From Candidatus Micrarchaeota archaeon (GTDB lineage: Archaea > Micrarchaeota > Micrarchaeia > Anstonellales > Anstonellaceae), in NCBI GenBank assembly GCA_043806415.1, contig JAZDHB010000058.1, positions 1 to 50,556 of the forward strand: a DNA stretch of 50,556 nt, in the 5' to 3' direction. Shown one piece after another: positions 5,410 to 50,556 of this stretch. A model generated the notes under the pieces. The model did no database searches. It saw only the letters and a list, made by a program, of their open reading frames with translations, and was not told the origin of the DNA. Every line of letters starts with the position of its first letter. Positions within the stretch are counted from its first letter, which is position 1. A program made the translations under genes and the position numbers.

Positions 5410-5476
5410 AAAATAAAAAGGAATCAAAAAAGATGGAGAAAAGAAAAAAGAATCAAAAAGAAAAAGAAATTCCGTC
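5410..5476 (-). terminator. Oligo-T tract terminator region for the minus-strand gene 5477..5971
   Basis: On the minus strand this spacer reads as repeated T5-T6 runs (TTTCTTTTTCTTTTTGATTCTTTTTTCTTTT...) directly after the stop. Archaeal termination is known to use oligo-T tracts. Confidence 0.45.
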
Positions 5477-5971: not shown

Positions 5972-6092
5972 ACCACCAAGTGCTAATGTGGTAACAGAAG
6001 TATATACATATATCTAGAACTCCGCTCCGACTGCGCCTTTTAAATGCCTGTCCGCCGTAATTCCATCATCCTTCTCTTGAAAGGCCTTTTCC

Positions 6093-6776: not shown

Positions 6777-6871
6777 GCCCGTTTTCTCGCGCGCGATGCC
6801 GGACCCCTGTTTTTCCGGTCCAATACCCTAACTGCGTGTGCCTTGTTTTCTGGCGCTCCAAAGGCGAATCC

Positions 6872-6879
6872 TATATAAA
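6872..6879 (+). promoter_or_regulatory. TATA box for uppS; the transcript is probably leaderless or has a very short leader
   Basis: TATATAAA lies 22-29 nt upstream of the ATG at 6901. Confidence 0.45.
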
Positions 6880-6900
6880 CCACGTCGTCTTTCTCCTATC

Positions 6901-7602: not shown

Positions 7603-8120
7603 GGATGGCAACGAAAAACAGTCCCCGCAAGAGGATGGCAACGAAGGCCGATCTCGACGACCGGACGGCCCGTCCCTCACTCATCATCAATCTTTCCAGC
7701 AAGCGCCGCCTTCCGGTCCGGCTCGAGAAGGCGGACACTATGCTCTCGCGCATGCGCGGCCTGATGTTCCGCCGCAAGCCCGCCTCCATCCTGTTCGTCT
7801 TCCCCAGCGAGGGCATCTATCCCATCCATTCCTTCTTCGTGCCCTTCGAGTTCGATGCCGTGTATCTTGACAGCCAGTGGCGGGTGAGCGGCATCTTCGA
7901 GCGCATCCGCCCCTTCGTCCCCTTCATCTCGCCGCCGAGCCCTTCGCTCATGCTTCTCGAGCTGGAGGCCGGCGCATCCAGAAAGCTCGGCCTCAAGATC
8001 GGGGACCGGATCGCCATCAAGATGGCGGAGCCGAAAAGCGCCATTGGGGGGGAAGGTCAGGAATTACCAAAAACTGGGGAGGGGGGCGCTCCCCCCTCCG
8101 CGGTTCGGAAGGGGGATTGA
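7599..8120 (+). CDS. DUF192-family protein (COG1430-like). Its C-terminal 24 codons and stop lie inside repeat copy 2.
   Basis: The ATG at 7599 overlaps the uppS TGA (ATGA). ADTMLSRMRGLMFRR...ILFVF...LLELEAGASRKLGLKIGDRI fits the DUF192 pattern. Confidence 0.65.
   Translation: MRMATKNSPRKRMATKADLDDRTARPSLIINLSSKRRLPVRLEKADTMLSRMRGLMFRRKPASILFVFPSEGIYPIHSFFVPFEFDAVYLDSQWRVSGIFERIRPFVPFISPPSPSLMLLELEAGASRKLGLKIGDRIAIKMAEPKSAIGGEGQELPKTGEGGAPPSAVRKGD
8046..8109 (-). repeat. Hairpin-mosaic repeat element, copy 2: minimal and inverted
   Basis: The reverse complement reads TCCGAACCGCGG-AGGGGGGAGCG-CCCCCCTCCCCAGTTT-TTGGTAAT-TCCTGACCTTCCCCCCC. These are the same three terminal motifs as copy 1, with almost no cargo. 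GGAGGGGGG-AGCG-CCCCCCTCC forms a 9-bp hairpin. Confidence 0.7.
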
Positions 8121-8121
8121 C

Positions 8122-9621: not shown

Positions 9622-9683
9622 TAAAGAAAGCGCGGGACTTCGCGTACCGTCAAAGCAGACGAATGAACCCCGAATAGCGAACG

Positions 9684-11636: not shown

Positions 11637-11640
11637 GAAT
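11616..11640 (+). repeat. Left copy of the direct repeat flanking the relBE-like cassette
   Basis: TTCATGGCCCCGGCGCTATGAGAAT forms the last six codons plus stop of the platform gene. It recurs at 12224-12248 with one synonymous difference in the matched part. Confidence 0.8.
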
Positions 11641-11718
11641 TTGAAGGCCGCCGAACCCTCGGCAGCCTGCACGGTAAGCTTAATATACTAAAGTATCCTC
11701 AAGTATACTGTGGTATAT

Positions 11719-11967
11719 ATGGACGCGACAGTCGATACGACAATCAAGCTTCATGCGAAGACCAAGCGGCAGTTGGACAAATGGCGGGAATACCGCCGGG
11801 AGAGCTATGACGACGTGATCCAGAAGCTGGTCCATATCGCCGAGACCGCCCGCGAGGAGCCCGAACTCAGCCAAGAGGCTGTGGAAGCCATCGAAGCCGC
11901 GCGGGAACGCATCCGTGCCGGCAAGTTCGTCACCGAAGCCGAAGCGCGCAAGAGGCTGGGGTTGTGA
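11719..11967 (+). CDS. Putative type II antitoxin, partner of the RelE-family toxin
   Basis: Small ORF (the track starts it at GTG 11710; an ATG lies at 11719). It overlaps the toxin start by 4 nt. A TATA-like TTAATATAC lies about 35 nt upstream. Confidence 0.6.
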   Translation: MDATVDTTIKLHAKTKRQLDKWREYRRESYDDVIQKLVHIAETAREEPELSQEAVEAIEAARERIRAGKFVTEAEARKRLGL

Positions 11968-12221
11968 GTCATTCTGTCATCTTTGACGAGAAGGTGCTGG
12001 ATTTCATCGCCAACCTGCAGGCTGATACGCGCGAGCGCATCCTGGACAAGATTTCAGAGGCCAAAGAGAATCCTCATCATTTCTTCGAGCGCCTGTCCGG
12101 CCGTCCCGACTTCAAGCTGCGCGTGGGAGATTACCGGTTAATCGCCGACATCGACGACGCGGCCGCCCGAATCACATTCACCTACATCGCTCACCGCAAG
12201 AGCGTGTATAAGAAGATTTGA
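11964..12221 (+). CDS. relE: RelE/ParE-superfamily toxin (mRNA interferase-like)
   Basis: 85 aa. FKLRVGDYRLIADIDD...ITFTYIAHRKSVYK is the typical RelE/StbE C-terminal pattern. The GTG start overlaps the antitoxin stop. Confidence 0.75.
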   Translation: MSHSVIFDEKVLDFIANLQADTRERILDKISEAKENPHHFFERLSGRPDFKLRVGDYRLIADIDDAAARITFTYIAHRKSVYKKI

Positions 12222-12223
12222 GT

Positions 12224-12248
12224 TTCATGGCCCCGGCGCTGTGAGATT
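12224..12248 (+). repeat. Right copy of the direct repeat flanking the relBE-like cassette
   Basis: TTCATGGCCCCGGCGCTGTGAGATT, compared with 11616-11640. The first 23 nt differ at one position (A/G), which is synonymous in the duplicated codons. Confidence 0.8.
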
Positions 12249-12251
12249 ACG

Positions 12252-12322
12252 GAAAAAGCAAAAAAGGAGGGAAATGAAAAACAGCAAAAGAAGAAAAATG
12301 AAAAACAAAAGAAGAAAAACAA
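12252..12322 (-). terminator. Oligo-T terminator region for the DUF4349 gene
   Basis: The minus strand shows multiple T5+ runs (TTTGTTTTTCTTCTTTTGTTTTTCATTTTTCTTC...) directly after the stop at 12328. Confidence 0.45.
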
Positions 12323-12327
12323 ATGGC

Positions 12328-13206
12328 CTACTTCCTGCCTTTCCCCGCGTTCGCTTCGCCCGCCGACTTCTTCGGGCGCAGGCGCCGGTAGACTGCGTAC
12401 AATACCACGCCCACGATCGCCATCGGGATCCCGAAGCCTAAGAGGGCCGAGATCGCGATGATGGCAACGCCCACCGCGCCCAGGAACACGTTGGCCACCT
12501 GGCTCAGGGGGTCGAACACCGTCCGGTCGACGACGGGCGCCTCTTCGTAGATGCGCACGCGCACGGCCGACATGGCGACCTGCCGGTCGATGTTAAGCTT
12601 CTGGTTCTGGTATATCTCGATGTCGGTCTGCACCCGGTTGAGCTCGTTCTCCACGGCCAGCACGTCTTGAAGCGAACCCTCGCGGTCGTAGAGCTTGCGC
12701 AGATCATCGCGCTGGATCTGGAGGTTCTTGATGCGCGTCCCGATGTCCACGTACTGCTCGCTCACGTCATTCACGTTGGAGCTCATCTGCTTGACCTCCC
12801 CGATGCCTTTGAGGAACGAGGCCATCCCGTCGAAGCGCTGGGGCGGTATTTTGATATTGACGTCATACTCCTTCGTGCTGTCGCTTTCCGAATAATCGGC
12901 GCTAAAGATCTGGCCGCCCATGGCGGCTACGCCGTCCTTGAATTTCGCGAACCTCTCGTCGATGGCGCCGGCCGGCACCTGCACCTGGGCGTTGGCGGTC
13001 TTGATGAGCTGCCGGCTCTGGGCCAGCTCCTGCGACGGGGCGGCCGAATCCATGCCCGCAAAAGCCGCCTGCGGGATGGCATCCTTGTAATTTCGGACGG
13101 CATAATCGCCAGAACCGGAGGCGCCAGTGCCCTCGAGCTCGGCGCAGCCTGCCATCAGCAGCATGCCGATGACTGTAATCATCATCAGAATCGGCGCATT
13201 TCTCAT
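12328..13206 (-). CDS. DUF4349-family lipoprotein-like membrane protein
   Basis: The ATG at 13206 gives MRNAPILMMITVIGMLLMAGC, a lipobox-like signal. The central coiled region EDVSEQYVDIGTRIKNLQIQRDDLRKLY...ENELNRVQTDIE and a C-terminal TM segment match DUF4349 architecture. Confidence 0.7.
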   Translation of the reverse strand: MRNAPILMMITVIGMLLMAGCAELEGTGASGSGDYAVRNYKDAIPQAAFAGMDSAAPSQELAQSRQLIKTANAQVQVPAGAIDERFAKFKDGVAAMGGQIFSADYSESDSTKEYDVNIKIPPQRFDGMASFLKGIGEVKQMSSNVNDVSEQYVDIGTRIKNLQIQRDDLRKLYDREGSLQDVLAVENELNRVQTDIEIYQNQKLNIDRQVAMSAVRVRIYEEAPVVDRTVFDPLSQVANVFLGAVGVAIIAISALLGFGIPMAIVGVVLYAVYRRLRPKKSAGEANAGKGRK

Positions 13207-13315
13207 CCGATCACCTCGTTTCAATCAAGTAACTACTCTCGGTTTCTTTATAAAATCCGGTGCTTCTGCCCGGCATGGCAATTGGGCTTAAAAATTCTGC
13301 TCTCCATATGTTCCT

Positions 13316-14473
13316 ATGGTGGAAAGCAGAATCTCGTCGGATGCCAAAGCGTCCGTTTCGTCTTATTCCAAGCCGACCCTCTCGGTCCTGGGCTCCCATT
13401 CCGCCCTCGATGTGTGCCAGGGGGCGAAGGCGCACGGGCTGTCCAACCTCGTCGTCTGCCAGAAGGGGCGCGAGGGCGTGTATTCTCGGCAATACAAATC
13501 CCGAAAAACCATCCACGGCCAAGTCGGCTGCGTGGACGAGATCCTGCTTCTTGACCAATTCAAGGACATCGCGGGCCAACCCGCGCTCAAAACCCTCCAG
13601 TCCAAACAATCCATTTTCGTGCCCCACCGCTCCTTCTCCGTCTACGTGGGCTACGATCTGATCGAGAACGAATTCGCGGTTCCCATCTTCGGCAACCGCC
13701 GCCTCCTGCGCGCCGAGGAGCGCAACGTGCCCAAGAACCAGCATCATCTGTTGAAGAAAGCGGGCGTCAAGGTGCCCAAGACCTTTTCCTCACCGGATAA
13801 AATCAACACCTTGTGCATCATCAAGGCACCCGAAGCGCAAAGGAGCTACGAGCGGGCGTTTTTCTTCGCATCCAATTACGAAGAGTATGTCGCGGAAAGC
13901 GGCAAGCTTCGGAGCGCAGGCATTATTACTCCCGAAGGCCTGAAAGGCGCACTCATCGAGGAATTCGTGCTGGGTGCGCCGTTCAATTTCAATTTCTTCC
14001 TCTCCCCGCTCACGGGCGAGCTGGAACTCCTGGGCATCGACACGCGGAGGCAGACCAACCTCGACGGCTGGTTGCGGCTTCCGGCAAAAGAGCAGAATAT
14101 GCTTGAGCTGGCCCGCCGCCAAGGTCGTGTCCGCGTCAACAACATCGAGGTCGGCCATATCGCCTGCACCCTGCGCGAATCCCTCCTCGAGCAGGTCTTC
14201 GAGATCGGGGAGAAATTCGTCAAGGCGTGCACGGCCGAATACGCGCCCGGCCTCATCGGCCCATTCGCGCTCCAGGGTGCCGTCTCCCCCTCTCAGAAAG
14301 GCGAGGAGATCTCCATCTTCGACGTTTCCTTCCGCGTGCCGGGCTCGCCGGGCACGCGCTTCACCCCGTACAGCGAATACCTGTTCAACAAATCCGTCTC
14401 GGTCGGCTCGCGCATCGGCATGGAAGTCCGGGCCGCGCTGGCCGAAAAGCGCCTGGATGAGATCGTCACGTAG
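13316..14473 (+). CDS. PurP-family ATP-grasp protein, divergent paralogue of FAICAR synthetase
   Basis: 385 aa. LSVLGSHSALDV..., VPIFGNRRLLRAEER, LELLGIDTRRQTNLDG and TLRESLLEQVFEIGEKFV align with PurP blocks. The nucleotide-loop region (GARGGRGY in the neighbour) is not conserved. Confidence 0.75.
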   Translation: MVESRISSDAKASVSSYSKPTLSVLGSHSALDVCQGAKAHGLSNLVVCQKGREGVYSRQYKSRKTIHGQVGCVDEILLLDQFKDIAGQPALKTLQSKQSIFVPHRSFSVYVGYDLIENEFAVPIFGNRRLLRAEERNVPKNQHHLLKKAGVKVPKTFSSPDKINTLCIIKAPEAQRSYERAFFFASNYEEYVAESGKLRSAGIITPEGLKGALIEEFVLGAPFNFNFFLSPLTGELELLGIDTRRQTNLDGWLRLPAKEQNMLELARRQGRVRVNNIEVGHIACTLRESLLEQVFEIGEKFVKACTAEYAPGLIGPFALQGAVSPSQKGEEISIFDVSFRVPGSPGTRFTPYSEYLFNKSVSVGSRIGMEVRAALAEKRLDEIVT

Positions 14474-14521
14474 GATCCATGCGCCGCGCCGGATCCATCC
14501 TTGTCAAAAAGAGGTTTTCAC

Positions 14522-15571
14522 ATGATATCGAAAGAGAAAATCCTCGAGGTCATCGAGGGATACGATCATAAGAAGCTGACCCTGGCCACGGTGTGCTCGC
14601 ACACCTCGCTCCAGCTGTTCTATTCCGCGAAACAGGAGGGCATCCGCACCCTCGGCCTCGTCACCAACGAGGATCAGCGCAAGATGTACGAGGCGTTCCC
14701 GCTGGCCAAGCCCGACGAATTCATCGATGTGGAGGACCCCAACGACCTTCCCGAGGCGGAACTGGCCGAGCGCAACTCCATCATCATCCCGCACGGCTCC
14801 ATCGTGGAATACGCCGGAAAGGCGCTCGACAAGCTCGCCGTCCCGGTGCTTGGCAACCGCAACTCCCTCGTCTGGGAGCGCGACCGCGTCAAGATGTTCG
14901 ACTGGATGCGCACCGCGGGCCTCCAGCTGCCGGCCCTCATCGACCCGGACAAGATCGACCGGCCCTGCGTGGTCAAGCACGCCGGCGCAAAGGGCGGGCG
15001 CGGCTATGCCATCGTACATTCGCCCGAGGAGTTCTACGCCAAGTTCGCCAACCAGGACGTCATGGTGCAGGAATACCTCATCGGCGTGCGCGTCTATCCT
15101 CACTTCTTCTACTCGCCCCTCTCCAAGGAGGGCTACCGGGCCTCGGACGGGCACATCGAGATGCTCTCCATCGACCGGCGCTTCGAGTCCAACATCGACG
15201 AGAGCTACCGCACCGTCATCGCGGGCGTGCCCATCAAGCCGTCCTTCACCGTGGTGGGCAACGAGCCCCTCGTGCTGCGCGAATCATTGCTCAACGACGT
15301 GCTCGTGATGGGCAAGGACGTGTGCGAAGCGGCCGACAAGCTCTTCGGAGGCATCCCCGGCCCGTTCTGCCTCGAGCTCATCTGCGACGAGAACCTCCAG
15401 TTCTACGCGTTCGAGATCTCGGCGCGCATCGTGGCCGGCACCAACCTCTATCCCACCGGCTCGCCCTATTCCCTGTTCGCGTTCGACGAGCCCATGAGCA
15501 CGGGCCGGCGCATCGCGCGCGAAGTGAAGTTGGCGGCCAAATCCGGCAAACTGGGAAAAATAGTGTATTGA
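14522..15571 (+). CDS. purP: 5-formaminoimidazole-4-carboxamide ribonucleotide (FAICAR) synthetase
   Basis: The ATG at 14522 gives MISKEKILEVIEGYD. It is preceded by AGAGGT 7 nt upstream. Also LATVCSHTSLQ, VPVLGNRNSLVWERDR, KHAGAKGGRGYAIV, and LVLRESLL...FCLELICDENLQFYAFEISARIVAGTN. Confidence 0.85.
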   Translation: MISKEKILEVIEGYDHKKLTLATVCSHTSLQLFYSAKQEGIRTLGLVTNEDQRKMYEAFPLAKPDEFIDVEDPNDLPEAELAERNSIIIPHGSIVEYAGKALDKLAVPVLGNRNSLVWERDRVKMFDWMRTAGLQLPALIDPDKIDRPCVVKHAGAKGGRGYAIVHSPEEFYAKFANQDVMVQEYLIGVRVYPHFFYSPLSKEGYRASDGHIEMLSIDRRFESNIDESYRTVIAGVPIKPSFTVVGNEPLVLRESLLNDVLVMGKDVCEAADKLFGGIPGPFCLELICDENLQFYAFEISARIVAGTNLYPTGSPYSLFAFDEPMSTGRRIAREVKLAAKSGKLGKIVY

Positions 15572-15597
15572 GCCTCTGTTCGGACTTTCTTTCCTCT

Positions 15598-16914
15598 TCA
15601 GTAATACTGGGCATACCGGCCGTCTTTGCCGCGCCAGGGTTTGTTGTTCTTCTGCCTTTCCCTCTCCGCTGGGCCGTGCCAGCCGGCCCCGATGTCCTTG
15701 CGCTCCTTTCGGGTCATTTTGTTGTGCCGGACCACCTCGCGCAGGGTCTCTCGGGCCCGGTGACCATTAATCTGGATCTCAACAATGTCCCCGGACATCG
15801 CATTCTTGCGCTTTCTGATCGAGGCTTCCAGTTCGTCCAGCTGGCTCCTCTGTTTGCCTGAGACGCTGAGTTCTCGGGCCTTCGCGATGTCTTCCTGTGC
15901 CATGTCCAACTCGCCGGTCTGCAGGCGCAGGATGGCCCGATTGTAGTATCCCAGGTAATTGGGCCAGCGTCCCAGCACGAAATTCAAATCCTCCAGCGCT
16001 CGGTCCCAGCTTCTCATCCACACGAGTAGCCTCCCCCTGTTTTGGCGGGCATAGATCTGGTTCGGATCCAGCTCGATCGCTTTGTCGTATTCGTCCAATG
16101 CGAACGCATACTGGTGCAAATAAGAGTAAGCCCGGCCCCGTTCATTGTAATTCATGGCATTGGTCGGCTCAAGCCCGATAGCCCGGGTCTGAAGCTCAAT
16201 CGCTTTCCAGAACTGTTGCTGCTGCATGGCGATGCCGGCCAGATTGGCGGTTAAATAATGTTCCGTCTCTGGCTTCTTCCTGATGCATTCGTCCATGAGT
16301 CCGATCGCCTTCTCCATCCGGCCTGCCCAGGCGTAGGCGATGACGAATTCATAGTGCCCGAACGAGTACGTGTTGGCCAAATCCGGCCTCAATTCCGACG
16401 CCCGCTCGAAATACCCCACTGCGGCTTGGGCGGCGCGCCGGATGTTCGCTTCCCGGTGGCCGTGCTTGAATTTAAGCACGCCCATCATGTAATTCGCGAA
16501 AGCGTTAGATTCTTTCATCCGTAAGATCCCAAGAAACTCCTTTTCGGCCATATCGTAATTTCCCGTGCGGGTGTAAGTCATGGCCAGATACTCGCGGGCG
16601 GTGACGTTGTCCGGGTAGCGGCCGATGATTTTCAGAAGCAGCTCTTTGGCCTCTTCCATCCGTCCCATGCGGGTAAGCAGGGATGCCTTGTGGTTGAGGT
16701 ACTGGGGCTGGTCTGGTTGTTTTTCGATGACTCCTTCGAGCGTCTCCAGCGCCTTTCGGTAATCTCCCGCTTCCTCGAATTGGCGGACGGGGGCCATCTC
16801 TTCGGTGAACATGATGGCCGGAAAATAGTATAACTTGTGGTATTCGGCCGATTCAGAATCCAGTTCGGGGTTTTGCGGATTTTCTTCCCTGCCTGCTCTG
16901 TCTGGGGTTTCCAT
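15598..16914 (-). CDS. Tetratricopeptide-repeat protein
   Basis: 438 aa with many 34-aa TPR-like units (A..Y...G.Y..A...F...L...P). A TATA-like ATATATTTAAAC lies about 40 nt upstream on the minus strand. Confidence 0.7.
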   Translation of the reverse strand: METPDRAGREENPQNPELDSESAEYHKLYYFPAIMFTEEMAPVRQFEEAGDYRKALETLEGVIEKQPDQPQYLNHKASLLTRMGRMEEAKELLLKIIGRYPDNVTAREYLAMTYTRTGNYDMAEKEFLGILRMKESNAFANYMMGVLKFKHGHREANIRRAAQAAVGYFERASELRPDLANTYSFGHYEFVIAYAWAGRMEKAIGLMDECIRKKPETEHYLTANLAGIAMQQQQFWKAIELQTRAIGLEPTNAMNYNERGRAYSYLHQYAFALDEYDKAIELDPNQIYARQNRGRLLVWMRSWDRALEDLNFVLGRWPNYLGYYNRAILRLQTGELDMAQEDIAKARELSVSGKQRSQLDELEASIRKRKNAMSGDIVEIQINGHRARETLREVVRHNKMTRKERKDIGAGWHGPAERERQKNNKPWRGKDGRYAQYY

Positions 16915-25188: not shown

Positions 25189-26171
25189 CAGAGACAGTAT
25201 AACGGGAAAAACAGCTTGTTTAAGCTAATTTTTCTATTTTGTCTATGGCGATGAGGATTTAAAAAGATTCGCCAACGATTTCCGTTTGTTCTGTCCTACT
25301 TCACCCGCTCGCAAAAGTCTTAAATCATCTTTAAATAAGGTTTACCGTGGCAGTTCAAGCCACATCTTTTTAAATGCATTGAGTATATGATAAATCGTAG
25401 TGCGTTGATACCGTGGTGTTCGTCTGAGCGTCGCTCTATGCGTACGCGAGAACCATAAGCGGTGTAGCACTACCTCGTGTTCTTATTATTGGGTTTTGTC
25501 AGTAAACCGTTAGGTTTCGGTTCGCATTCAAAGATATGGTCGTCTACGACGTCCAGTAAGCCACTTGTTTTCATAAGCTTAGCGCGAAAAGCTCCGGCTA
25601 TCAAATCTGCCAATTGGAGGCCGCTGATGGTCTGGGATTTGCGCTCTTCCACACGCAGGTTCTTTTTGCTTTTTCGAAGTACTTGGACAAACCGCCTCAC
25701 GCTGTCTAATGACTCCTTGGATAATTTCTCGTCGATTATTACAATAACTTCTTCTTTTTTCTCTATTTTATCTGCGAAGTTTCCTGCAATCGAGAGTAGC
25801 ATTTGGGTTTGTATTCTCTCTTCATTTTTTCCAGTGGTTAAACTCGCATCCGCTTTTTCTACGTCCACATATGCCAAATAGAACTTATGGTATTCTTTAT
25901 TGATCAGCTTTATCGCAATTTCCTGTTGGAATCTAGAGATATCATGGTATTTTATCTCTTTGGGGTCCCGGATCTGCTTGCCTTGGGCTTCACAATTTTT
26001 TCTGATGCGACGGATTAAATCTTCTGCGAATTGTTTGTTGTTGCAAACACAAAATGAGAGAACCAAGTATTTCTGTCTTGCATTTATATTCGTCGAACCC
26101 GATTCGTCTACAAAGACAAACATATCAGTATTTCTGGCTGACAGGTTAAAAGGTTAGTATACTTGTCTCTG
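25189..26171. mobile_element. Low-GC cassette of about 1 kb carrying only the DUF3800 gene, bounded by imperfect 13/14-nt inverted repeats
   Basis: CAGAGACAGTATA lies at 25189-25201 and TATACTTGTCTCTG at 26158-26171 (reverse complement CAGAGACAAGTATA). There is a sharp, visually obvious drop in GC between them. No transposase is present. Confidence 0.4.
25470..26123 (-). CDS. DUF3800-family protein
   Basis: 217 aa. The N-terminal MFVFVDESGS and C-terminal SGLQLADLIAGAFR are the two hallmark DUF3800 motifs as I recall them. The gene is AT-rich. Confidence 0.75.
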   Translation of the reverse strand: MFVFVDESGSTNINARQKYLVLSFCVCNNKQFAEDLIRRIRKNCEAQGKQIRDPKEIKYHDISRFQQEIAIKLINKEYHKFYLAYVDVEKADASLTTGKNEERIQTQMLLSIAGNFADKIEKKEEVIVIIDEKLSKESLDSVRRFVQVLRKSKKNLRVEERKSQTISGLQLADLIAGAFRAKLMKTSGLLDVVDDHIFECEPKPNGLLTKPNNKNTR

Positions 26172-40791: not shown

Positions 40792-42225
40792 ATGGCCTCT
40801 GCCAAATCCAGCGTCGAACGGCCGCGCTTTTTCCGGCCCGAGTCCGCTTCCCGCCCGGACCCCGTCCGAATGCATTCGCTTCTGGACGGCGTGCGCAGCC
40901 GCCTGCGCCCGGGCGCGGCCGAGATCCTTCTCCTGGAGCGCGTGCGCGATTCAGTTTTTGGGCGCCTGCATAAAGTCGTGCCCAAGTCAGTCGAGATCGG
41001 CCTGATGGGCTCGTCGGCGAAAGGCACCTCTCTCAAATCCAACCTCGAACTCGACATCTTCCTCATGGTGCCCACGAGCATGAGCCACCGCGAGATGGGC
41101 AAGAAAGCCGTCGCCTGGGCCCGGAAGGCGATGCGCGGCTGCAAAACCGAGCTGAGCTATGCCCAGCACCCCTACCTCAAGGCGTATGTGGACGGCGTGA
41201 AAATCGACATCGTGCCCTGCTACAAGATCGAGCGGGCGGAGGGCATGGGCAGCGCCACCGACCGCTCGCAGCTGCACGTCAAATGGGTGGGCGAGCGCAT
41301 CCGCCCCGCCCAGCAGGACGACGTGCGCCTGCTCAAGCAGTTCCTCAAATCCTTGGGGATCTACGGCGCGCAATCGCGCGTGGAGGGCTTTTCGGGCTAC
41401 CTGTGCGAACTGCTCATCCTGCATTACGGCTCGTTCGTGAAAACGCTCGAGGCGGCGGGCGAGTGGAAGCAGCCCGTCCTCGACCCGGCCGGCCATCACG
41501 CCGACCCGGCCGCGCTGCGGGCGAGATTCGCGGGCGCGGCCATGGTCCTCATTGACCCCGTGGACCCCGAGCGGAACGTGTCGGCCGTGGTCTCGCACAC
41601 CTCGTTCTCGCGCTTTATCCTCGCGGCCCGCGGTTTCCTCGCCAAGCCCGGCCTTTCGTATTTCTTCAAGGAGAAGGCCGTGCACGACGCCAAGAAGCTG
41701 CGCTCGCTCATCGCGCGCCGGCAGACGCACACGCTCGTCCTTTCCATGCCCTCGCCCGACGAGGTGGAAGACGTCCTCTGGCCCCAGCTGCGCAAAACCG
41801 CCCACGCCCTCATCTCCGTGCTCGAGCAGGCGCAGTTCCGCCTCCTGGGGCATTATTTCTGGGCCGATGAGACGGATTCCCTCATCCTCTTCGAACTGGT
41901 CGACCGCGAGCTTCCGGCCATCCTGCTCAAAAAGGGCCCGCAAGTCTGGCACGCCAAGGACGTCGAGGCGTTCATCCGCACGCACGAGAAAGCGGGCGCG
42001 CTCAATTTCCACCTCGAGCACGAGCGCATCGTGGCCGTCCGGATGCGCATGCATCGCACGCCAAAAGAGGCGCTGGAGGCGGCTCTCCGGGAGCCTGCTC
42101 GCTTGGGCATCCCCGTCCCGTTCGCGCGCGCGATGAAAAAGGCCAAGTGGGGGACGGCGCTCGATCTCCTCCAGAAAGCCAAATGGCGCGAGGTCGCGTC
42201 GGATTATTTCACAAGAAGATTATAG
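40792..42225 (+). CDS. cca: Archaeal class I CCA-adding tRNA nucleotidyltransferase
   Basis: GSSAKGTSLKSNLELDIFLMVP is the class I nucleotidyltransferase motif. Also YAQHPYLKAYVDGVKIDIVPCY, DRSQLHVKWV, and GFSGYLCELLILHYGSF. An alternative start at 40870 gives MHSLLDGV. Confidence 0.85.
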   Translation: MASAKSSVERPRFFRPESASRPDPVRMHSLLDGVRSRLRPGAAEILLLERVRDSVFGRLHKVVPKSVEIGLMGSSAKGTSLKSNLELDIFLMVPTSMSHREMGKKAVAWARKAMRGCKTELSYAQHPYLKAYVDGVKIDIVPCYKIERAEGMGSATDRSQLHVKWVGERIRPAQQDDVRLLKQFLKSLGIYGAQSRVEGFSGYLCELLILHYGSFVKTLEAAGEWKQPVLDPAGHHADPAALRARFAGAAMVLIDPVDPERNVSAVVSHTSFSRFILAARGFLAKPGLSYFFKEKAVHDAKKLRSLIARRQTHTLVLSMPSPDEVEDVLWPQLRKTAHALISVLEQAQFRLLGHYFWADETDSLILFELVDRELPAILLKKGPQVWHAKDVEAFIRTHEKAGALNFHLEHERIVAVRMRMHRTPKEALEAALREPARLGIPVPFARAMKKAKWGTALDLLQKAKWREVASDYFTRRL

Positions 42226-43829: not shown

Positions 43830-45998
43830 CTAGACGATTTTTCCCCGTGCCAGCTGGGGCGAGCCGCCCCCTTTCGCGCCTTTTTCCTTGAGCATCGCCA
43901 GCGCGTCCTTGCCGCTCGACGGGGGGCAGGCGATCACCATGAATTTCTCGTTGTTTTGCAGAACCGCCGTCAAGCCGGCATCGACAATCTTCTGCGCTGC
44001 AGAATCCATGGATTTTGAATCGAACGATAGGTCGGATATTTCGACCAAGGTGCGATTCTCTTTTTTGGCTTTTTCGATTTCAGCAAGAACGAGCGCCAAT
44101 GCGGCCGTCTCTGAGAGCTTGTCGACCTGTTTTCGCAGGTTTTTCCAGCCATCGAATATTCTGGCCACCGAGGCGGGCAGCTGGTTCTCGGGCACGCCCA
44201 GTCCGTCGGCCATCCTGCGCACGAGCGCCTCGCGTTCCTGCACGTATCTCACGGCCGCCATGGCGCACTTGAACGTCACCCGCTCCACGCCGTCCTGCAC
44301 CGATTCGCGCTTGACGATCTTGAAGAAGCCGATGTCGCCCGTGCGATCCACGTGCGTGCCGCCGCACGCCTGGTGGTCAATGTCGCCGATGGAGACGATT
44401 CTCAGCTCGAGGCCCGGCACGGCCCCGCCCTGGTAAATCCTAAATCCGAATTTGGCTTCCGCTTCCGAGCGCGCGTAAATCTTCTTTGGCACCGGCAGGT
44501 TCGAGCAGATGATATCGTTGGCCTTGCGCTCGATGGCATCCAGTTCCTCGTCCGTAATGCGTTTGTAATGCGTCAGGTCCAGGTGCGCCTTGTTCTCGTC
44601 CTTGTGCGAGCCGCACTGCCAGACGTGCGGGCCGAGCACCTCACGCGCGGCGGCGTTGAGCATGTGCGCCCCGGAATGGTGGGCCATGATCTGTTTTCGC
44701 CGGTCGGCCTCGATCTCGCCGGGCACGGTCTGGCCCACCTCGAACTTCTCCGGGTGGGGCACCTTGTGCAGCACCACGCCGGCCTCTTTCTTGACTTCCA
44801 GCACGCCCTGCTCCGCGAGCGCACCGGAGTCCGACACCTGCCCGCCGGATTCGGCGTAGAACGCGGTCTTGTCCAGCACGATCCAGCCGTCCTTGATGGC
44901 GACGACCTTGGCCTTGAACTTGAACTCCCCGTTGTAGCAGAGCATCTCGGTCTTGGGCAGGCCCATGACGTCGACCGACGGCAGCTTGGCCGTTTCCTCG
45001 TCCGCATGGCGCACCGAGGAATAGAAATCATCGGGAATCTCGAGGTCAAGCTTCTGCTCTCTGGCCGTGCTCTGCACCATCTCGGGCGGGATGCCGTCGG
45101 AGATGTACAGCGTGGTGAGCTCCTGCACGCTGATTTTTCTCTGCTCGCGCGCGGCCTTCATGACTAGGTTGGCCACCTTGCCCCTCGCCTTCACCTGGGT
45201 GGCGCGGTATTTGGCCAGCTCCTCAGCCACCACGTCGATGGCGGTCGGCACCCCTTCCACCAGGTTCGGGAAAAGGGGCTTGAGGTGCTGGGCGTGTCCC
45301 TCGAGCACGTCGGCCCAGTCCATGCCCCAGTGGTATTCGTCGTCGAAGCTGAACGCCCGGCGAAGGATCAGGCGCAGGTTGTACCCCCCGCCCGAGTTGG
45401 AGGGCAGCTGCCCGTCCGTGATCGTGAAGAGGTTGGTGAGCAGGTGATCCGCGCTCGCATAGAGCGCGAACTGCTCGTCAAGCGACGTGAAAAGCGCTTT
45501 GCGGTCCATGCCCAATTTGTGCGCAATCGCTTCCTGCTGCGAATGCACTGAGCGCCCCTCCTCGGCATCCAGTCCGCCGGAGAGTTTGGCATACTGCTCG
45601 AACACCTTGGGATCAAGGCGCACGCCGCCCTTCGCCTTCATCTTGTCGATGACTGGCCCGAAAATCAGCTCGTAGGACGTGGGCGTGCCATGCTGGATCC
45701 AGCAGAGCCTCGCAAGGCCCGCGCCCATGTCGATGACCTTGGTCGAAAGCTCGCGCGCGCCGCCGTCCGGCAGCGTCTCGTACTGCATGAACACGCAATT
45801 GCCCAGCTCGATGCCCCGGCAGAAGTATTCCATGGACGGGCCGAAGTTGCCGCCGCCCACCCACACGTCCTCCTTGAACACGATCTCTTCCTCGTCAAGT
45901 CCCAGCGCGAGGAGATAGTTGATGTCGTGGCGGATGGCCTCGTCCTTCCAGTAGAACGTGCCGGTCTTGGCCGTGTTGAAGCCCAGCTGGCCGAACAT
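43830..45998 (-). CDS. alaS: Alanine--tRNA ligase, C-terminal 722-aa fragment; the gene is interrupted by a frameshift near 46020
   Basis: MFGQLGFN..., the tRNA-recognition and editing domain (HSGAHMLNAA, CGGTHV), and the C-terminal DHHA1-like region. Homology continues upstream of this ATG in the same frame (RHYTNFV). Confidence 0.85.
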   Translation of the reverse strand: MFGQLGFNTAKTGTFYWKDEAIRHDINYLLALGLDEEEIVFKEDVWVGGGNFGPSMEYFCRGIELGNCVFMQYETLPDGGARELSTKVIDMGAGLARLCWIQHGTPTSYELIFGPVIDKMKAKGGVRLDPKVFEQYAKLSGGLDAEEGRSVHSQQEAIAHKLGMDRKALFTSLDEQFALYASADHLLTNLFTITDGQLPSNSGGGYNLRLILRRAFSFDDEYHWGMDWADVLEGHAQHLKPLFPNLVEGVPTAIDVVAEELAKYRATQVKARGKVANLVMKAAREQRKISVQELTTLYISDGIPPEMVQSTAREQKLDLEIPDDFYSSVRHADEETAKLPSVDVMGLPKTEMLCYNGEFKFKAKVVAIKDGWIVLDKTAFYAESGGQVSDSGALAEQGVLEVKKEAGVVLHKVPHPEKFEVGQTVPGEIEADRRKQIMAHHSGAHMLNAAAREVLGPHVWQCGSHKDENKAHLDLTHYKRITDEELDAIERKANDIICSNLPVPKKIYARSEAEAKFGFRIYQGGAVPGLELRIVSIGDIDHQACGGTHVDRTGDIGFFKIVKRESVQDGVERVTFKCAMAAVRYVQEREALVRRMADGLGVPENQLPASVARIFDGWKNLRKQVDKLSETAALALVLAEIEKAKKENRTLVEISDLSFDSKSMDSAAQKIVDAGLTAVLQNNEKFMVIACPPSSGKDALAMLKEKGAKGGGSPQLARGKIV

Positions 45999-46465
45999 GA
46001 CGAAATTGGTGTAATGCCTCCGGTCACGCCCACGTTGGTCAGGTCGGAGAAGCGGATGCAGGGCTGGGGAACGATGATCGGATTGGCCGGCGGAGGCATC
46101 TCACCGGACACCACGTAGGGCTGGAAATCGTTGATGGAAGCGATGGTGAAATAGAGATCGTCGCGCCACCGGGCCACCGTCGGGTACGGGGCGATGGCCG
46201 TGTGCCCGTTCGAGGTGAAATAGCGCTCGATCTCCCGCCACGTCTCGACGTAGCCCAGCTTCTTCTGGCTGCCGGGCTGGCCGATGAACTGGTACCCGAC
46301 GCACGTGGCGTCGGCGCACATTTCCCGCCTGTTCTTGGCCCAGAAATGCGTCTTGCAGTTCTGGCACTGCTGGCGCGTGTATCCGCGCTCGATGAGGCTC
46401 GGCAATTTGTAATGCTTCTCCCATTCGGCCCCGAACTGGGCGCGAAGCTGCTGCTTGTCCGTCAT
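45665..46465 (-). CDS. alaS: Alanine--tRNA ligase, N-terminal fragment. Only about 46020-46465 is homologous; the remainder is out-of-frame read-through.
   Basis: MTDKQQLRAQFG...RGYTRQQCQNCKTHFW...ATCVGYQFIG...PTVARWRDDLYFTIASINDFQPYVVSGEMPPPANPIIVPQPCIRFSDLTNVGVTG is followed by non-homologous sequence. Confidence 0.75.
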   Translation of the reverse strand: MTDKQQLRAQFGAEWEKHYKLPSLIERGYTRQQCQNCKTHFWAKNRREMCADATCVGYQFIGQPGSQKKLGYVETWREIERYFTSNGHTAIAPYPTVARWRDDLYFTIASINDFQPYVVSGEMPPPANPIIVPQPCIRFSDLTNVGVTGGITPISSCSASWASTRPRPARSTGRTRPSATTSTISSRWDLTRKRSCSRRTCGWAAATSARPWNTSAGASSWAIACSCSTRRCRTAARASFRPRSSTWARALRGSAGSSMARPRPTS

Positions 46466-46623
46466 GTAAAACACATGGCGAGATGAAATTAAAAACACGC
46501 CTGTTGTCCAAAAACCAGTTTTCCTTCTATAATTTTCTTTTTCCCTGAAGGCTTTTTCTTTTCCTCAGAAGACGAACTATTTCTTTCTTTTTAGTGGAGG
46601 TTTTTCTTTCGGGGTCAAGCCAA

Positions 46624-46645
46624 TTTCTTTTCCGCAGAAAAGAAA
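46624..46645 (-). terminator. T-rich hairpin 11 nt downstream of tRNA-Val
   Basis: The minus strand reads TTTCTTTTC-TGCG-GAAAAGAAA, a perfect 9-bp stem. Confidence 0.4.
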
Positions 46646-46656
46646 GGGGATTGAAT

Positions 46657-46729
46657 TGGACTCGCGCGGGATCGAACCGCGAATCTCCTCTGTGTGAGAG
46701 AGGCGTGTTAACCATTCCACCACGAGTCC
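46657..46729 (-). tRNA. tRNA-Val (anticodon CAC), no encoded CCA
   Basis: The reverse complement is GGACTCGTGGTGGAATGGTTAACACGCCTCTCTCACACAGAGGAGATTCGCGGTTCGATCCCGCGCGAGTCCA. It has a 7-bp acceptor stem GGACTCG/CGAGTCC, anticodon stem CCTCT/AGAGG with loop CTCACAC, and T arm CGCGG-TTCGATC-CCGCG. Confidence 0.9.
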
Positions 46730-46755
46730 GAATCGCTCCCATCAGGAGTTTGACG

Positions 46756-46768
46756 TATTAGGTTAAAC
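46756..46768 (-). promoter_or_regulatory. Possible TATA-like element for tRNA-Val
   Basis: The minus strand reads GTTTAACCTAATA, 27-39 nt upstream of the tRNA 5' end. Confidence 0.3.
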
Positions 46769-47081
46769 TTTGCTTTTCTACGTCGTGTTTTTCCACTACT
46801 TTTTAGCCGCAAAATTCAGGAAAAATCGGCCATGGGCCGACTCTTCAGATTTTCACGGATTTCACACTTGGATTTTCTTTGACGGCGATTGTTTTTATAC
46901 CTTGCATATTCGCCATCAGTCGTCCAGCTGCTTGTGATTGGCCTGCGCTCAAAAGGAACTGAAAGCCCCACCTCCATTCTCAATGCAACGGATTCTACAG
47001 TTTATGCTGCACCTGTCAGTATCCTTACGCCGGACAATACTAAACCTTACTACACAAATGCGATTATTCACTATCCATCAG

Positions 47082-47090
47082 CTTTAAATA
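47082..47090 (+). promoter_or_regulatory. TATA box for the AlbA_2-type gene
   Basis: CTTTAAATA lies 24-32 nt upstream of the ATG at 47114, followed by CCCCCTCC. Confidence 0.4.
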
Positions 47091-47113
47091 CCCCCTCCGA
47101 CCCTGTTTATCTC

Positions 47114-48424
47114 ATGCAACCAAGCACACACGAGGACCACAAGACCGAGTTCAAGAAGAGCCTGGACGAGGACGCGATTGCCAAGACCATGACGGCCTTC
47201 GCCAATGGCCACGGCGGGAGAGTATATGTCGGCATCTCGGATGACGGAAATGTCGTGGGCGCTCGCATTGGAAAGCAGAAGCTGGAGCAGTTCACCCGCC
47301 GGATCCACGATGACACCACGCCTCCGATCGCGTTCGAGACGCGCTTTGAGAAGAGCGGTTCCGAGGAAGTGCTCGTCATCGAAGTTCATCCGGCCAAGCG
47401 CAAGCCCGTATTCTACCTCGGCCTGGCCTACAAGCGCGTGAACAAGACCACGCTCAAAATAACCGACCCAGAAGAGCTGCGCAGCCTCTTCGTGAACAAG
47501 ACCGTATTCTTCGATGACACTCCCTGCCCGTCCGCCGGTATCAAGGATCTGGACGAGGAGACCATCCGCCAGTTTACCTCTATGGCCGTCGCGTCCGGCC
47601 GCCTCGCGCACCCTGCCACCAAAGAGGATGAGTTCCTCGTAAAGTTGGGCCTGATGGAGGGGCAGGAGCTCAAGAACGGGGCCGTGATGCTTTTCGGAAG
47701 AGACCCATCCGCGTTCTTCCCGGTCTGGGGCATCCGCTGCGCGGTTGTCTCGTCCGGCATGGACTTCCAGGACATGCAGGATTTCAACGGCAACCTCATC
47801 CTGTCTATCGACCAGGCGCTCCTGTATATCCGCTCCAAAGTCCCGAAGGAAATGAAGGTGGAAGGCCTGCGGCGTGTTGAGACGCCCCGCATACCTGAGC
47901 GGGCCATCCGTGAGGCGCTGGTCAATGCGGTTGCCCACAGGGACTATTTCTTCCCCTCTTTCGTCTATGTCACCATCGGCCCGGACTACGTCGAGATAAA
48001 GAACCCAGGGCGGTTGGAGGGGCTGACTCCCGACGACCTGTCCAAGGTGCACTCCTCCGTCATCAAGAACCCCAACATCGCACGGGCGTTCTTCCTCTGC
48101 AAATACATCGAGACATGGGGTTCGGGCACCGTCAAGATATACCAGGCCATGCGCCAGAACGGGCTCAAAGACCCCCAGTTCGGCTTCGACCCCATGTTCT
48201 CTGTGCGGTTGAGCATGCAGCCACAGAAGCTCAATGAGCGGCAAAAATACATTCTGGCGGCTATTCAGGCCGGAAAGTCTCTCAAGCCGACCGAGGTTGC
48301 GAACAAATACGACATCTCGGTCTCGGCTACCGTCGGCGACTTCGCACATCTGGTGGAGCTGGGCCTCATCCAAAAGAGCGGGAAGGGGAGGTCAAGCGTA
48401 TTCGCTCTTACTAAAGTATACTAA
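47114..48424 (+). CDS. Schlafen/AlbA_2 DNA-binding domain plus HATPase_c_4-like domain plus C-terminal wHTH protein (COG2865-type putative regulator)
   Basis: The ATG at 47114 lies inside ORF 46889..48424. EDHKTEFKKSL...AKTMTAFANGHGGRVYVGISDDGNVVG is the AlbA_2 signature. REALVNAVAHRDY...IKNPG...NPNIARAF...IETWGSG is the ATPase-like domain. An HTH-like tail is present. Confidence 0.75.
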   Translation: MQPSTHEDHKTEFKKSLDEDAIAKTMTAFANGHGGRVYVGISDDGNVVGARIGKQKLEQFTRRIHDDTTPPIAFETRFEKSGSEEVLVIEVHPAKRKPVFYLGLAYKRVNKTTLKITDPEELRSLFVNKTVFFDDTPCPSAGIKDLDEETIRQFTSMAVASGRLAHPATKEDEFLVKLGLMEGQELKNGAVMLFGRDPSAFFPVWGIRCAVVSSGMDFQDMQDFNGNLILSIDQALLYIRSKVPKEMKVEGLRRVETPRIPERAIREALVNAVAHRDYFFPSFVYVTIGPDYVEIKNPGRLEGLTPDDLSKVHSSVIKNPNIARAFFLCKYIETWGSGTVKIYQAMRQNGLKDPQFGFDPMFSVRLSMQPQKLNERQKYILAAIQAGKSLKPTEVANKYDISVSATVGDFAHLVELGLIQKSGKGRSSVFALTKVY

Positions 48425-48455
48425 ACATTTCAAATAGTGTAGTATGGTTTAGTAT
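48418..48455 (+). promoter_or_regulatory. 9-bp inverted repeat sharing its core with the vapB operator-like repeat
   Basis: ATACTAAAC lies at 48418-48426 and GTTTAGTAT at 48447-48455. It sits between the AlbA_2 gene stop and the next ORF. Confidence 0.4.
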
Positions 48456-48471
48456 CATACGACGTAAGGGA

Positions 48472-49428
48472 ATGATAATGTGTAGAATTAAGTCCAGAAT
48501 CATGCTCGAAGATAACCACAAAAACGAACAGAAGGTTGATATCATGGATCCACTGAACCAAGAAATCAAAGCCATCTACACTCTCCTCACAGACGCGACG
48601 AAAGTCAAATCTGGCGATTATTCCAAGCCGGACCAGAAGCGGATAAAAAGAATCATCAATGTCCTTGATACCAACCAAATCAAGGCATTCGCCAAAACGA
48701 AGAACATCAAATTGGTCGGGGAGCGAAAATTCCAGCTAATCATGCCCGTTGCAAGAGGCTCGACGCTGGAAGAATTCACGCGCTTCTTGACCGATTATGT
48801 AAATCGTTCGCGCAAGACGCCCAGAACATCTGTCTTCGAATCGCTGGGAAAAATCAATCCGGTGGAAGACTGGGGCACAATCCAATCCAGTCTGCAAACC
48901 GAATTTCGGAAGTGCGGCCCATTCTCAACTCTGCCGGATAGCAAAAAAGTCACGGTAATCGAAAAAGCCCGCCTGCTGGACGGATATTCCGAGTATACTT
49001 TTAGATATCCAGTCTCGGCCACGGTAAAAGAATGGAAGAACGATGATCACGATTTCAAAAAGCCCGCGTCTGTAAGATTCCGCGTGATGACCACTGGAGA
49101 GCTATTGGTAACTCCCCCCAGCAAGAACAAGGAGCACTACTCTCTCGTTTGGGAAGTCATGAAAAAGGTTTTGAGTGCCAGTGAAGTTCCAGTGAGCTCC
49201 AAAAAGAAAGAGGAGACGAAACAGCAATTCTTGGAGGGCAAAGTCGAAGCGACTGAGGCCAAGTTCCTGCATGTCGAGAACGGGAAGAGATTCAAGCTGG
49301 CCATAGAGGGCGACGGGGCCTTGGAGTATCTCAAGAATATCCTTGGTGAAAAATACCAAGCTTTTAGCGAGGCATTTGACTTGGTTAGCGGCGTTGAAAA
49401 AGATGGTCGGAAACGGACGTTTATCTAA
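48472..49428 (+). CDS. Hypothetical protein, no recognisable family
   Basis: 318 aa ORF with lower GC and normal composition. Alternative starts lie at 48502 and 48544. Its 3' end overlaps the next ORF by 26 nt. Confidence 0.5.
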   Translation: MIMCRIKSRIMLEDNHKNEQKVDIMDPLNQEIKAIYTLLTDATKVKSGDYSKPDQKRIKRIINVLDTNQIKAFAKTKNIKLVGERKFQLIMPVARGSTLEEFTRFLTDYVNRSRKTPRTSVFESLGKINPVEDWGTIQSSLQTEFRKCGPFSTLPDSKKVTVIEKARLLDGYSEYTFRYPVSATVKEWKNDDHDFKKPASVRFRVMTTGELLVTPPSKNKEHYSLVWEVMKKVLSASEVPVSSKKKEETKQQFLEGKVEATEAKFLHVENGKRFKLAIEGDGALEYLKNILGEKYQAFSEAFDLVSGVEKDGRKRTFI

Positions 49429-50556
49429 GCTCTTGGGCGCTCCAAATCATTTTGGGCGACCGGGCTGGGCTTCATACTCCGCCTATAGCGGAGAGCCAGA
49501 GATAATCTCTCAATCAACAGTGTCCTTGTGCAAGACGTGTAGAAAAGAGATAGCTGCAACTCCCTGTGATTACTGCGAAACAAACGGGACATATTCTGGC
49601 GAAACTGAAAAAGTAGCCAAGTACACGTCGAATAGCCAGGCATTTGGCACCACTGTGGCCGAAACGCTGGTCAAGGAAGGAATTTCCGCGAAGACCGTTG
49701 CTATCGATGACACAAAGGACGAATTGTGCATCGTTTTTCAATCCCCAAACGGCTTCAAAGTCGGTCTCGTCTTCTTCAAGGGAACGCTCATCGGAGAGGA
49801 CACATTCAGGCAGACCGTCTCAAAAATGACCGACGAAAAACACGCGGATTATCTCGTATTCCTGTGCAAGCAGCATGACGAGTCAATAAGCAAGATTCTA
49901 AACTTCTACCCATACGCCCGCATCGACACCTTCGAGATTTCAGCCAAGAAACCGAACCTGCTCAAACAACATCTTGACACCTTCGCAGCGCTCGCTCCGA
50001 TACGTCCGAAGGCAAGCAGCTCTATCATGTATCGCGCTTCCGAAATTACAGCGGCAATCGAGGCCACAAAACGAATATACGCCCAAATCCGAAGCTCTGG
50101 GAAATCGACCAAGGAATTAGGCAACGAATTCGAAAAACACCTGATAATCGTCCTAAACTACCTTTTCACAACATTCGATGTTAAGAGCAGGGACCGTCTG
50201 CCCGAGCTTCTGATTTTTGACTATACCTCTGGGTTTTATCTGGTAGATATCAAAAGCGGGATGTACAAAATCGCCGACTACCGGCAGATACAATCCTATG
50301 CCAGTGCGTATTTTGCGCTTCTGTCTGAGCAGAAAAAATCAATCCACATTCGAGGTTTCATTGTCCCACATATCCTATGGAGCGAGAAAGCGGATGCCGT
50401 ATCAGACACATTCGAAAATTTTGTTAAAAACTACAAACCGCTCGCGGATGCCGGCGTGCAGATAACTCTAATGGACGTTGACGTGATACTGCGGCTCGCC
50501 GAGGCAAAGCCAACCATGAGCAATAACGCATTCACGCATCTCTTGCTCAATGTCGA
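49403..50556 (+). CDS. Hypothetical Zn-ribbon plus PD-(D/E)xK-like protein, partial; it runs off the right edge
   Basis: Absent from the track because no stop lies in the window. My translation in the frame of the ATG at 49403 is open to the window end (at least 384 codons). It shows CKTCRKEIAATPCDYC (a CxxC-x9-CxxC ribbon) and later ELGNEFEKHL...PELLIFDYTSGFYLVDIKSG (D ... D-I-K, restriction-endonuclease-like). Confidence 0.5.
   Translation, partial: MVGNGRLSKLLGAPNHFGRPGWASYSAYSGEPEIISQSTVSLCKTCRKEIAATPCDYCETNGTYSGETEKVAKYTSNSQAFGTTVAETLVKEGISAKTVAIDDTKDELCIVFQSPNGFKVGLVFFKGTLIGEDTFRQTVSKMTDEKHADYLVFLCKQHDESISKILNFYPYARIDTFEISAKKPNLLKQHLDTFAALAPIRPKASSSIMYRASEITAAIEATKRIYAQIRSSGKSTKELGNEFEKHLIIVLNYLFTTFDVKSRDRLPELLIFDYTSGFYLVDIKSGMYKIADYRQIQSYASAYFALLSEQKKSIHIRGFIVPHILWSEKADAVSDTFENFVKNYKPLADAGVQITLMDVDVILRLAEAKPTMSNNAFTHLLLNV

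Follow-up and report, generated by a model that had tools for sequence, protein, structure and literature searches.

Three co-oriented genes lie at the right-hand end of contig JAZDHB010000058.1 from Candidatus Micrarchaeota archaeon (assembly GCA_043806415.1), between a tRNA-Val gene and the contig end. The window analysed here is the whole contig, 50,556 bp long, and the third gene is truncated where the contig stops. The stretch right of the tRNA is occupied by three open reading frames (ORFs) on the + strand: gene 1 (47114..48424, 436 amino acids, aa) encodes a predicted prokaryotic Schlafen protein, gene 2 (48502..49428, 308 aa in the NCBI call) encodes an orphan, and gene 3 (49403..50556, the first 384 of about 434 codons) encodes a candidate nuclease and starts within gene 2. 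An earlier interpretation made from the letters alone, referred to below as the sequence-only reading, had put the three forward as a candidate three-gene system. The evidence assembled here favours a different arrangement, in which the overlapping genes 2 and 3 form the conserved unit and gene 1 is a neighbour belonging to a known class.

That the stretch holds three co-oriented genes is borne out by comparison with a close relative, L001, a 22-kb metagenome scaffold: dN/dS is 0.117 for gene 1, 0.150 for gene 2 and 0.121 for gene 3, so that all three are real coding genes under purifying selection. The drop in GC content right of the tRNA is equally evident. GC lies at 0.56-0.69 (about 0.62) over most of the window, at 0.49-0.57 across 46.5-48.5 kb, and at 0.47-0.50 from 48 kb to the window end, a composition foreign to the contig. 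The tRNA-Val gene (anticodon CAC; 46657..46729, - strand; ARAGORN, and Rfam RF00005 at 65.1 bits) forms the left border of the low-GC block, with its 5' end pointing toward the island. Between it and gene 1 lies a non-coding spacer (46730..47113), defined by alignment with L001 and L002, by motif search and by direct reading; it is without an L001 counterpart before about 47037 and contains an archaeal TATA-like sequence, TTTAAATA, at 47084-47091. Homology to L001 in blastn begins at 47123.

Gene 1 and the repeated 9-mer

The gene 1 ORF opens further upstream, and the ATG at 47114 agrees with the start of its homologue. Two of the three parts that the sequence-only reading had seen in its product are matched in Pfam above the gathering score: SLFN_AlbA_2 (PF04326) at residues 7-115 (75.3 bits against a cutoff of 25.3, E 7.7e-21) and HATPase_c_4 (PF13749), a GHKL ATPase domain, at residues 283-360 (59.7 bits against a cutoff of 26, E 2.9e-16). 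The GHKL N-box 'REALVNAVAHRDY' is readable in the translation. The third part, a winged helix-turn-helix (wHTH) tail at residues ~365-434, is indicated by sub-threshold matches only, to HVO_A0114 (0.015), ArsR (0.037), the PADLOC CARF3 wHTH (5.7e-4) and phrog_1123 (2.2e-4). Further matches are to PADLOC pAgo/Schlafen-fusion models (4e-11) and, in PHROGs, to phrog_12156 (4.3e-65). Motif reading finds Ex4ExK intact as E7-x4-E12-x-K14 (M-Q-P-S-T-H-E7-D-H-K-T-E12-F-K14), and the L001 homologue (430 aa, 78% identical) carries it as E3-x4-E8-x-K10.

Ex4(E/D)xK is the catalytic motif of prokaryotic Schlafen (pSlfn) nucleases, according to a survey (PMC13056530) in which the Schlafen-HisKinase-HTH architecture accounts for 19.2% of 5,930 prokaryotic Schlafens and the family members tested gave phage defence from a single gene. 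A 2026 preprint (bioRxiv 10.64898/2026.05.29.728809) gives the combination of Schlafen and GHKL domains the name 'Schlatpase' supradomain. Of the 103,533 prokaryotic Schlafen proteins counted there, 58.6% contain it, in most cases accompanied by an HTH tail or by no further domain. The preprint also describes ATP-driven tetramerisation and tRNA cleavage by a Schlafen-Argonaute fusion, as well as stand-alone Schlatpase genes within type I restriction-modification (R-M) operons. Because its domain architecture and its Ex4ExK motif match those described, gene 1 is classed here as a predicted new member of this known and common class, pSlfn-HisKinase-HTH or 'Schlatpase', of antiviral tRNA nucleases.

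The surroundings of gene 1 carry a repeated 9-mer, GTTTAGTAT, found by motif search in three exact copies in the 50.5-kb window against 0.02 expected, all of them around gene 1 or before gene 2: 47037-47045(-), 48418-48426(-) and 48447-48455(+). The first copy is inverted, lies 69 nucleotides (nt) before the gene 1 ATG and also coincides with the left edge of the homology to L001. The other two fall in a conserved non-coding element (48409..48455), found by repeat search, that reaches across the stop codon of gene 1 into the gene 1-gene 2 spacer and is a candidate operator. Its two arms form the palindrome ATACTAAAC-N20-GTTTAGTAT, and the right arm consists of two sites in tandem, GTGTAGTAT-G-GTTTAGTAT, spaced by 10 bp. 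In L001 the 9-mer recurs with one mismatch at 1918-1926, 68 nt before gene 1; the tandem pair is likewise found behind gene 1, at 3302-3320, and another pair, a palindromic one, immediately precedes gene 2 at 3421-3446. The sites, but not the hairpin, are conserved between the window and L001, a pattern that suits binding by a protein better than a structured RNA. Speculatively, these sites could be bound by the wHTH tail of gene 1, and their presence upstream of both gene 1 and gene 2 hints at shared regulation.

Genes 2 and 3 as a conserved overlapping pair

The longest ORF of gene 2 runs from 48472 to 49428 (318 aa), and conserved sequence starts near 48535. The sequence-only reading recognised no motif in this ORF, and the searches agree: gene 2 has no family match in Pfam, NCBIfam, PADLOC, PHROGs or PDB sequences, no NTPase motif was found in it, and an exact-protein look-up of the 318-aa ORF gave no match. 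Its relatives are P0003 (79% identity) and a set of 329-aa Thermoplasmata proteins (23-25% identity), for which BLASTP gives 1e-5 over 195 aa and the alignment is full-length. An AlphaFold2 (AF2) model from 2 sequences reaches a predicted local distance difference test score (pLDDT) of 49, with only residues 16-100 confident, and these are helical. The model suggests a helical N-terminal domain (residues ~16-100) followed by a mixed alpha/beta C-terminal half. Foldseek against PDB returned low-TM matches to Septu PtuA and Mediator, which were judged to be noise and left unused.

Gene 3 had been predicted as an ORF open from 49403 to the window end, and it does run there from an ATG through 384 codons; its start overlaps gene 2 by 26 nt. 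The homologue P0001 has 434 aa and is 84% identical, so about 50 aa are missing from the window copy. Translation shows an N-terminal CxxC-x8-CxxC motif (C43, C46, C55 and C58; 49529..49576, + strand), complete in gene 3 of the window and in P0001, the Micrarchaeota-type proteins. The two CxxC pairs of the zinc ribbon read earlier are thus present, at a spacing of x8 and not x9. In the Thermoplasmata relatives the motif is rearranged, as CxxC-x7-C with further C/H at other spacing, and no model or profile supports it as zinc-binding.

The case for a nuclease comes from the C-terminal region (50108..50556, + strand), which is PD-(D/E)xK-like in its conserved motif. Among five relatives, with about 25% identity between lineages, 26 alignment positions are invariant, including E244 (50132-50134), P267 (with E268 at 50201-50206), D282 (50246-50248) and K284 (50252-50254). 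Position 268 is E or D in the 4 relatives with a readable codon there and a stop in the fifth, L005, and the conserved spacing is E244 ... P267-E268-x13-D282-I-K284. Of the D-x12-D-I-K pattern proposed earlier, D282-I-K284 is conserved; the upstream acid is instead E268 at x13, as D264 and D273 are not conserved in distant relatives. The AF2 model (4 sequences, pLDDT 45) places a helix at 236-256, then three strands, a helix and a strand. Aligned by hhalign to the N-terminal nuclease of HsdR from L001, the best local match sets LP[ED]-ILIF...VDIK over RPD-IIVF...IELK (P = 0.08, not significant). Gene 3 is likely, at about two in three, to encode a nuclease as the sequence-only reading proposed, although this is unproven; its motif is conserved, and profile or structural matches to it were not found.

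Several candidate similarities were set aside. Foldseek matches of gene 3 to GNAT and antizyme proteins were low-TM noise and were not used; PDB sequence searches with the profiles A1, A2, A6 and A7 gave chance matches only (annexin 0.25, CD48 0.023); and a similarity of gene 3 to the FokI cleavage domain, suspected by eye, has an hhalign probability of 0.1%, with an approximate FokI sequence and a shallow profile. Of the profile and structure searches that had been suggested, profiles matched gene 1 to a family, and both kinds of search left genes 2 and 3 without a match.

Both genes are exceedingly rare. A word-indexed search of 5.8 billion proteins returned P0001 alone for gene 3, and its own protein plus P0003 for gene 2. 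Exhaustive phmmer over 1.84 billion cluster representatives added two more, P0004 (a 133-aa fragment) and P0005 (434 aa, 30% identity), and a profile search of the 5.8 billion proteins added nothing new. GTDB genomes hold one copy, in a Thermoplasmata metagenome-assembled genome (MAG), and no relatives were found in two JGI metagenome scans, IMG/VR, plasmids or phages. Among the several billion proteins searched, genes 2 and 3 are known only from Micrarchaeota-type and Thermoplasmata contigs.

One of these contigs, L005, is 1 kb long and carries a gene 3 relative with an in-frame TAG at 163-171, exactly where the P-E motif has its conserved Glu (DNLP*LIIFD). The stop may mean that a toxic nuclease has been inactivated, that the codon is recoded or that the sequence contains an error.

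Genomic contexts in relatives

L001, together with L002 and L008, represents one Micrarchaeota-type context. In L001 an AlbA_2/HATPase_c_4 gene is followed by a 299-aa gene and a 434-aa gene, with the order of the window and the 26-nt overlap kept; DNA identity to the window is 77.5% for gene 1 and 82.9% for genes 2-3. The rest of the 50-kb window has no match to L001, whose upstream flank is a membrane-protein gene and not tRNA-Val, so that the trio block sits in different flanks. The alternative that the block is conserved core synteny with native composition, raised in the sequence-only reading, is not what was seen, given these flanks and the foreign GC.

Downstream in L001, 44 nt after the gene 3 homologue, comes a tightly packed series of hsdM, a 300-aa orphan, hsdS, a 787-aa orphan and hsdR, the R-M genes matching PADLOC MTase_I (1e-225), Specificity_I (1e-99) and REase_I (E = 0). 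That the trio is directly followed by an entire type I R-M operon is consistent with the earlier suggestion that the system of the window continues beyond it. The 300-aa orphan (7195-8097) bears an Rx4H (HEPN-like) motif, 'LRNGFFH', and the 787-aa orphan (9415-11778) has N-terminal hydrophobic segments; neither has a Pfam or PADLOC match, and the R-M stretch that bears them has the lowest GC of the locus.

Given this proximity, genes 2 and 3 might belong to the neighbouring type I system as accessory subunits, for instance as an additional nuclease or a modification sensor working through HsdM, HsdS or HsdR. The pair in L001 does end just before hsdM in the same orientation, in an operon that has two other orphans embedded in it. 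The idea is nevertheless improbable: GC in L001 is 0.45-0.47 in the pair against 0.32-0.39 in the hsdS region, the genes downstream differ on two other short contigs, and in Thermoplasmata the pair stands apart from any R-M operon. The last point comes from L006, a Thermoplasmata MAG contig of 433 kb, of which 20.8 kb were examined, where no hsdM, hsdS or hsdR and no Schlafen/AlbA_2 gene lies within 10 kb either side of the pair.

On L006 and on the Thermoplasmata contigs L003 and L004, which are too short for their flanks to be judged, a 329-aa gene overlaps a 434-aa gene by 20 nt. The overlap, which the sequence-only reading took as a sign of coupling, has thus been kept together with the pairing itself at about 25% protein identity, with 26 nt in Micrarchaeota-type and 20 nt in Thermoplasmata loci. 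Because the distant occurrences carry genes 2 and 3, in L006 without gene 1, the conserved unit is the overlapping pair and not the trio.

The neighbours of the pair in L006 are mostly orphans, with an AIG2/GGACT protein, a TPR protein and weak defence-like matches to HEPN_RiboL-PSP (0.003), PDC-S28 (2.7e-5) and DzbB. Orphans dominate two stretches of this neighbourhood, 1-8800 and 11400-16200, and several of them carry motifs that look like Rx4H or PD-ExK; the neighbourhood may represent an archaeal defence island not yet charted. HEPN-like 'LRNxFxH' proteins stand beside the pair in both L001 and L006 and were considered as a conserved third partner, but they are not homologous. A short conserved stretch precedes the gene 2 homologues at L003 1-50 and L006 8725-8771, readable in one frame as a C-terminal CxxC peptide (TEC[SP][AN]C..FEA*); in L006 it falls outside any ORF of 20 aa or more. 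On L005 the downstream gene is different again.

PD-(D/E)xK nucleases also function in recombination and transposition. Genes 2 and 3 could accordingly serve not immunity but the maintenance or recombination of a mobile element, as a toxin-antitoxin-like addiction pair or as a resolvase or recombination nuclease with a DNA-binding partner. Foreign composition and changing flanks would suit such a role, and the TAG in L005, falling exactly at the conserved P-E codon, would be expected if the nuclease is toxic. Against this, no integrase, transposase, replication or viral gene occurs in the flanks examined, the IMG/VR, phage and plasmid collections gave no matches, and no terminal repeats bound the pair, all of which makes this role unlikely.

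The contexts also bear on whether all three genes form one integrated system, with the Schlafen/GHKL/wHTH protein as sensor or regulator and genes 2 and 3 as effector. Synteny of the window with L001, L002 and L008, at 77-83% DNA identity between unrelated flanks, would be expected of such a system, as would the 9-mer sites common to the upstream regions of gene 1 and gene 2. Yet the co-occurrence that the sequence-only reading called for is found in a single other lineage, a close one, and fails in Thermoplasmata, where the pair of L006 has no AlbA_2 neighbour. Gene 1 also stands apart from genes 2-3 by its GC (0.56, against 0.47 in the pair) and by its dS to L001 (1.09, against 0.68-0.76), and GC is mosaic in both loci. 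It is separated from gene 2 by a spacer of 47-172 nt, whereas genes 2 and 3 overlap, and the related pSlfn proteins described in PMC13056530 act alone. The three-gene system as first proposed is therefore doubtful.

To the left of tRNA-Val the window holds housekeeping genes, among them alaS (43830-46498) and a CCA-adding enzyme gene (40792-42225). Integrases that target tRNA genes usually leave their elements on the 3' side of the tRNA; the island here is on the 5' side. As had been noted before, the three proteins show no integrase family match in a Pfam search and 46600-50556 contains no repeat of the tRNA sequence, the far end of the island lying beyond the contig. Classical tRNA-mediated integration was rejected on these grounds, with that far end unseen.

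Two features further left deserve a record. On the minus strand, alaS is split into ORFs 45665-46498 and 43830-45998 by a -1 frameshift at 45990-46020, after '...NVGVTG'; at this site, GGAGGCATTAC, G-R-H-Y-T is readable only with one base added, and the frameshift in this essential gene probably arose in sequencing or assembly. A second low-GC patch at 25470-26123 (-), with GC of 0.455-0.466 against about 0.62, carries a DUF3800 gene (Pfam 5.8e-15) whose neighbour resembles by eye a ribosomal protein L1-type gene. This patch, too, has the look of a small insert acquired from elsewhere.

A proposed mosaic locus and known systems

The favoured explanation, to which a probability of about 0.55 is given, is a mosaic defence island gained by horizontal transfer, of which the contig shows the left end. 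It would be set at a housekeeping/tRNA border and built of separate modules. The first module would be gene 1, acting as a stand-alone Schlafen 'Schlatpase-HTH' protein, as its family membership suggests. The second would be genes 2 and 3, a translationally coupled pair and evolutionarily conserved unit, proposed from motif conservation, the conserved overlap and genomic context. Gene 3 would most likely be a metal-dependent PD-(D/E)xK-type endonuclease with an N-terminal zinc-binding element, and gene 2 its obligate partner, whether sensor, specificity factor or inhibitor. The third, a type I R-M operon, probably lies beyond the contig end, as synteny with L001 implies. Speculatively, both promoters might be under the control of a single DNA-binding protein, for which the gene 1 wHTH tail is the simplest candidate; the modules would then be linked by regulation through shared GTTTAGTAT control rather than by mechanism.

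Several points weigh against this explanation. Gene 3 has no match, as a full protein or as isolated domains at E <= 10, in Pfam, NCBIfam, PADLOC, PHROGs or PDB sequences; Foldseek against PDB gives it only matches of TM 0.14-0.17 to unrelated folds; and both AF2 models, with pLDDT of 45 and 49, are of low confidence. Only about five independent contigs carry the family, and the R-M operon is not seen within the window. Outside the Micrarchaeota-type loci a defence context for the pair is suggestive and not shown, since its neighbours there are mostly unannotatable orphans with weak matches. A functional link between gene 1 and the pair is also possible, because the trio travels together in a close relative and the DNA homology starts upstream of gene 1.

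A bolder version, to be held tentatively, treats genes 2 and 3 as an undescribed, self-contained archaeal immune module: a methyltransferase-independent zinc-binding nuclease with a coupled partner, circulating between Micrarchaeota and Thermoplasmata and wired in Micrarchaeota, via GTTTAGTAT operators, to the Schlafen gene and type I R-M in a co-regulated multi-layer locus. That the pair is confined to Micrarchaeota-type and Thermoplasmata contigs deserves notice, since symbiont-host pairs are documented within these lineages (PMC8975820, PMC5498576), and horizontal gene transfer is on record in Micrarchaeota (PMC12892359). With about five contigs at 25% identity, sharing of the pair between symbiont and host is only a hint.

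The defences of DPANN archaea and of their hosts have been little mapped so far. Under the mosaic explanation, a symbiont with a reduced genome would carry a stacked locus of a Schlafen tRNase, an orphan nuclease pair and probably type I R-M. If the pair proves to restrict viruses or plasmids, it would be a new small nuclease system and might also be a case of immune genes shared between symbiont and host. For annotation, the lesson is that the conserved unit is the overlapping pair and that the Schlafen gene is a known neighbour which probably acts independently.

Extra genes inside type I operons are a familiar pattern of defence islands. The L001 block conforms to it in being co-oriented and lying 44 nt upstream of hsdM-X-hsdS-Y-hsdR; it departs from it in that the R-M genes lie outside the window and that the pair of genes 2 and 3 also occurs without R-M. 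Gene 1 shares with pSlfn HisKinase-HTH proteins, the Schlatpases and the old COG2865 the Schlafen and GHKL domains with a putative HTH tail, the Ex4ExK motif and the GHKL N-box, and differs in coming from a DPANN archaeon and in being known here from its sequence. It resembles the stand-alone Schlatpase genes of R-M operons in its defence-type neighbourhood, near type I R-M in L001. The parts consulted of PMC13056530 and bioRxiv 10.64898/2026.05.29.728809 mention neither flanking GTTTAGTAT sites nor a function of the HTH tail in regulating an operon.

Gene 3 has in common with PD-(D/E)xK nucleases a Glu predicted to lie on a helix, a P-[E/D] and, 13 residues on, D-x-K; the predicted alpha-beta-beta-beta-alpha-beta order would fit the fold, and the local profile alignment with the HsdR N-terminal domain is in register with its PD...ELK. 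Compared with the established enzymes (HsdR N-terminal domains, type II and type IV enzymes), it is without a significant family match or a confident model, and it has in addition a putative N-terminal zinc motif, an unassigned middle domain and a conserved overlapping partner gene. In Thermoplasmata it is also without an adjacent methyltransferase. As a family the pair is new; in kind it belongs with the familiar small nuclease modules of defence neighbourhoods.

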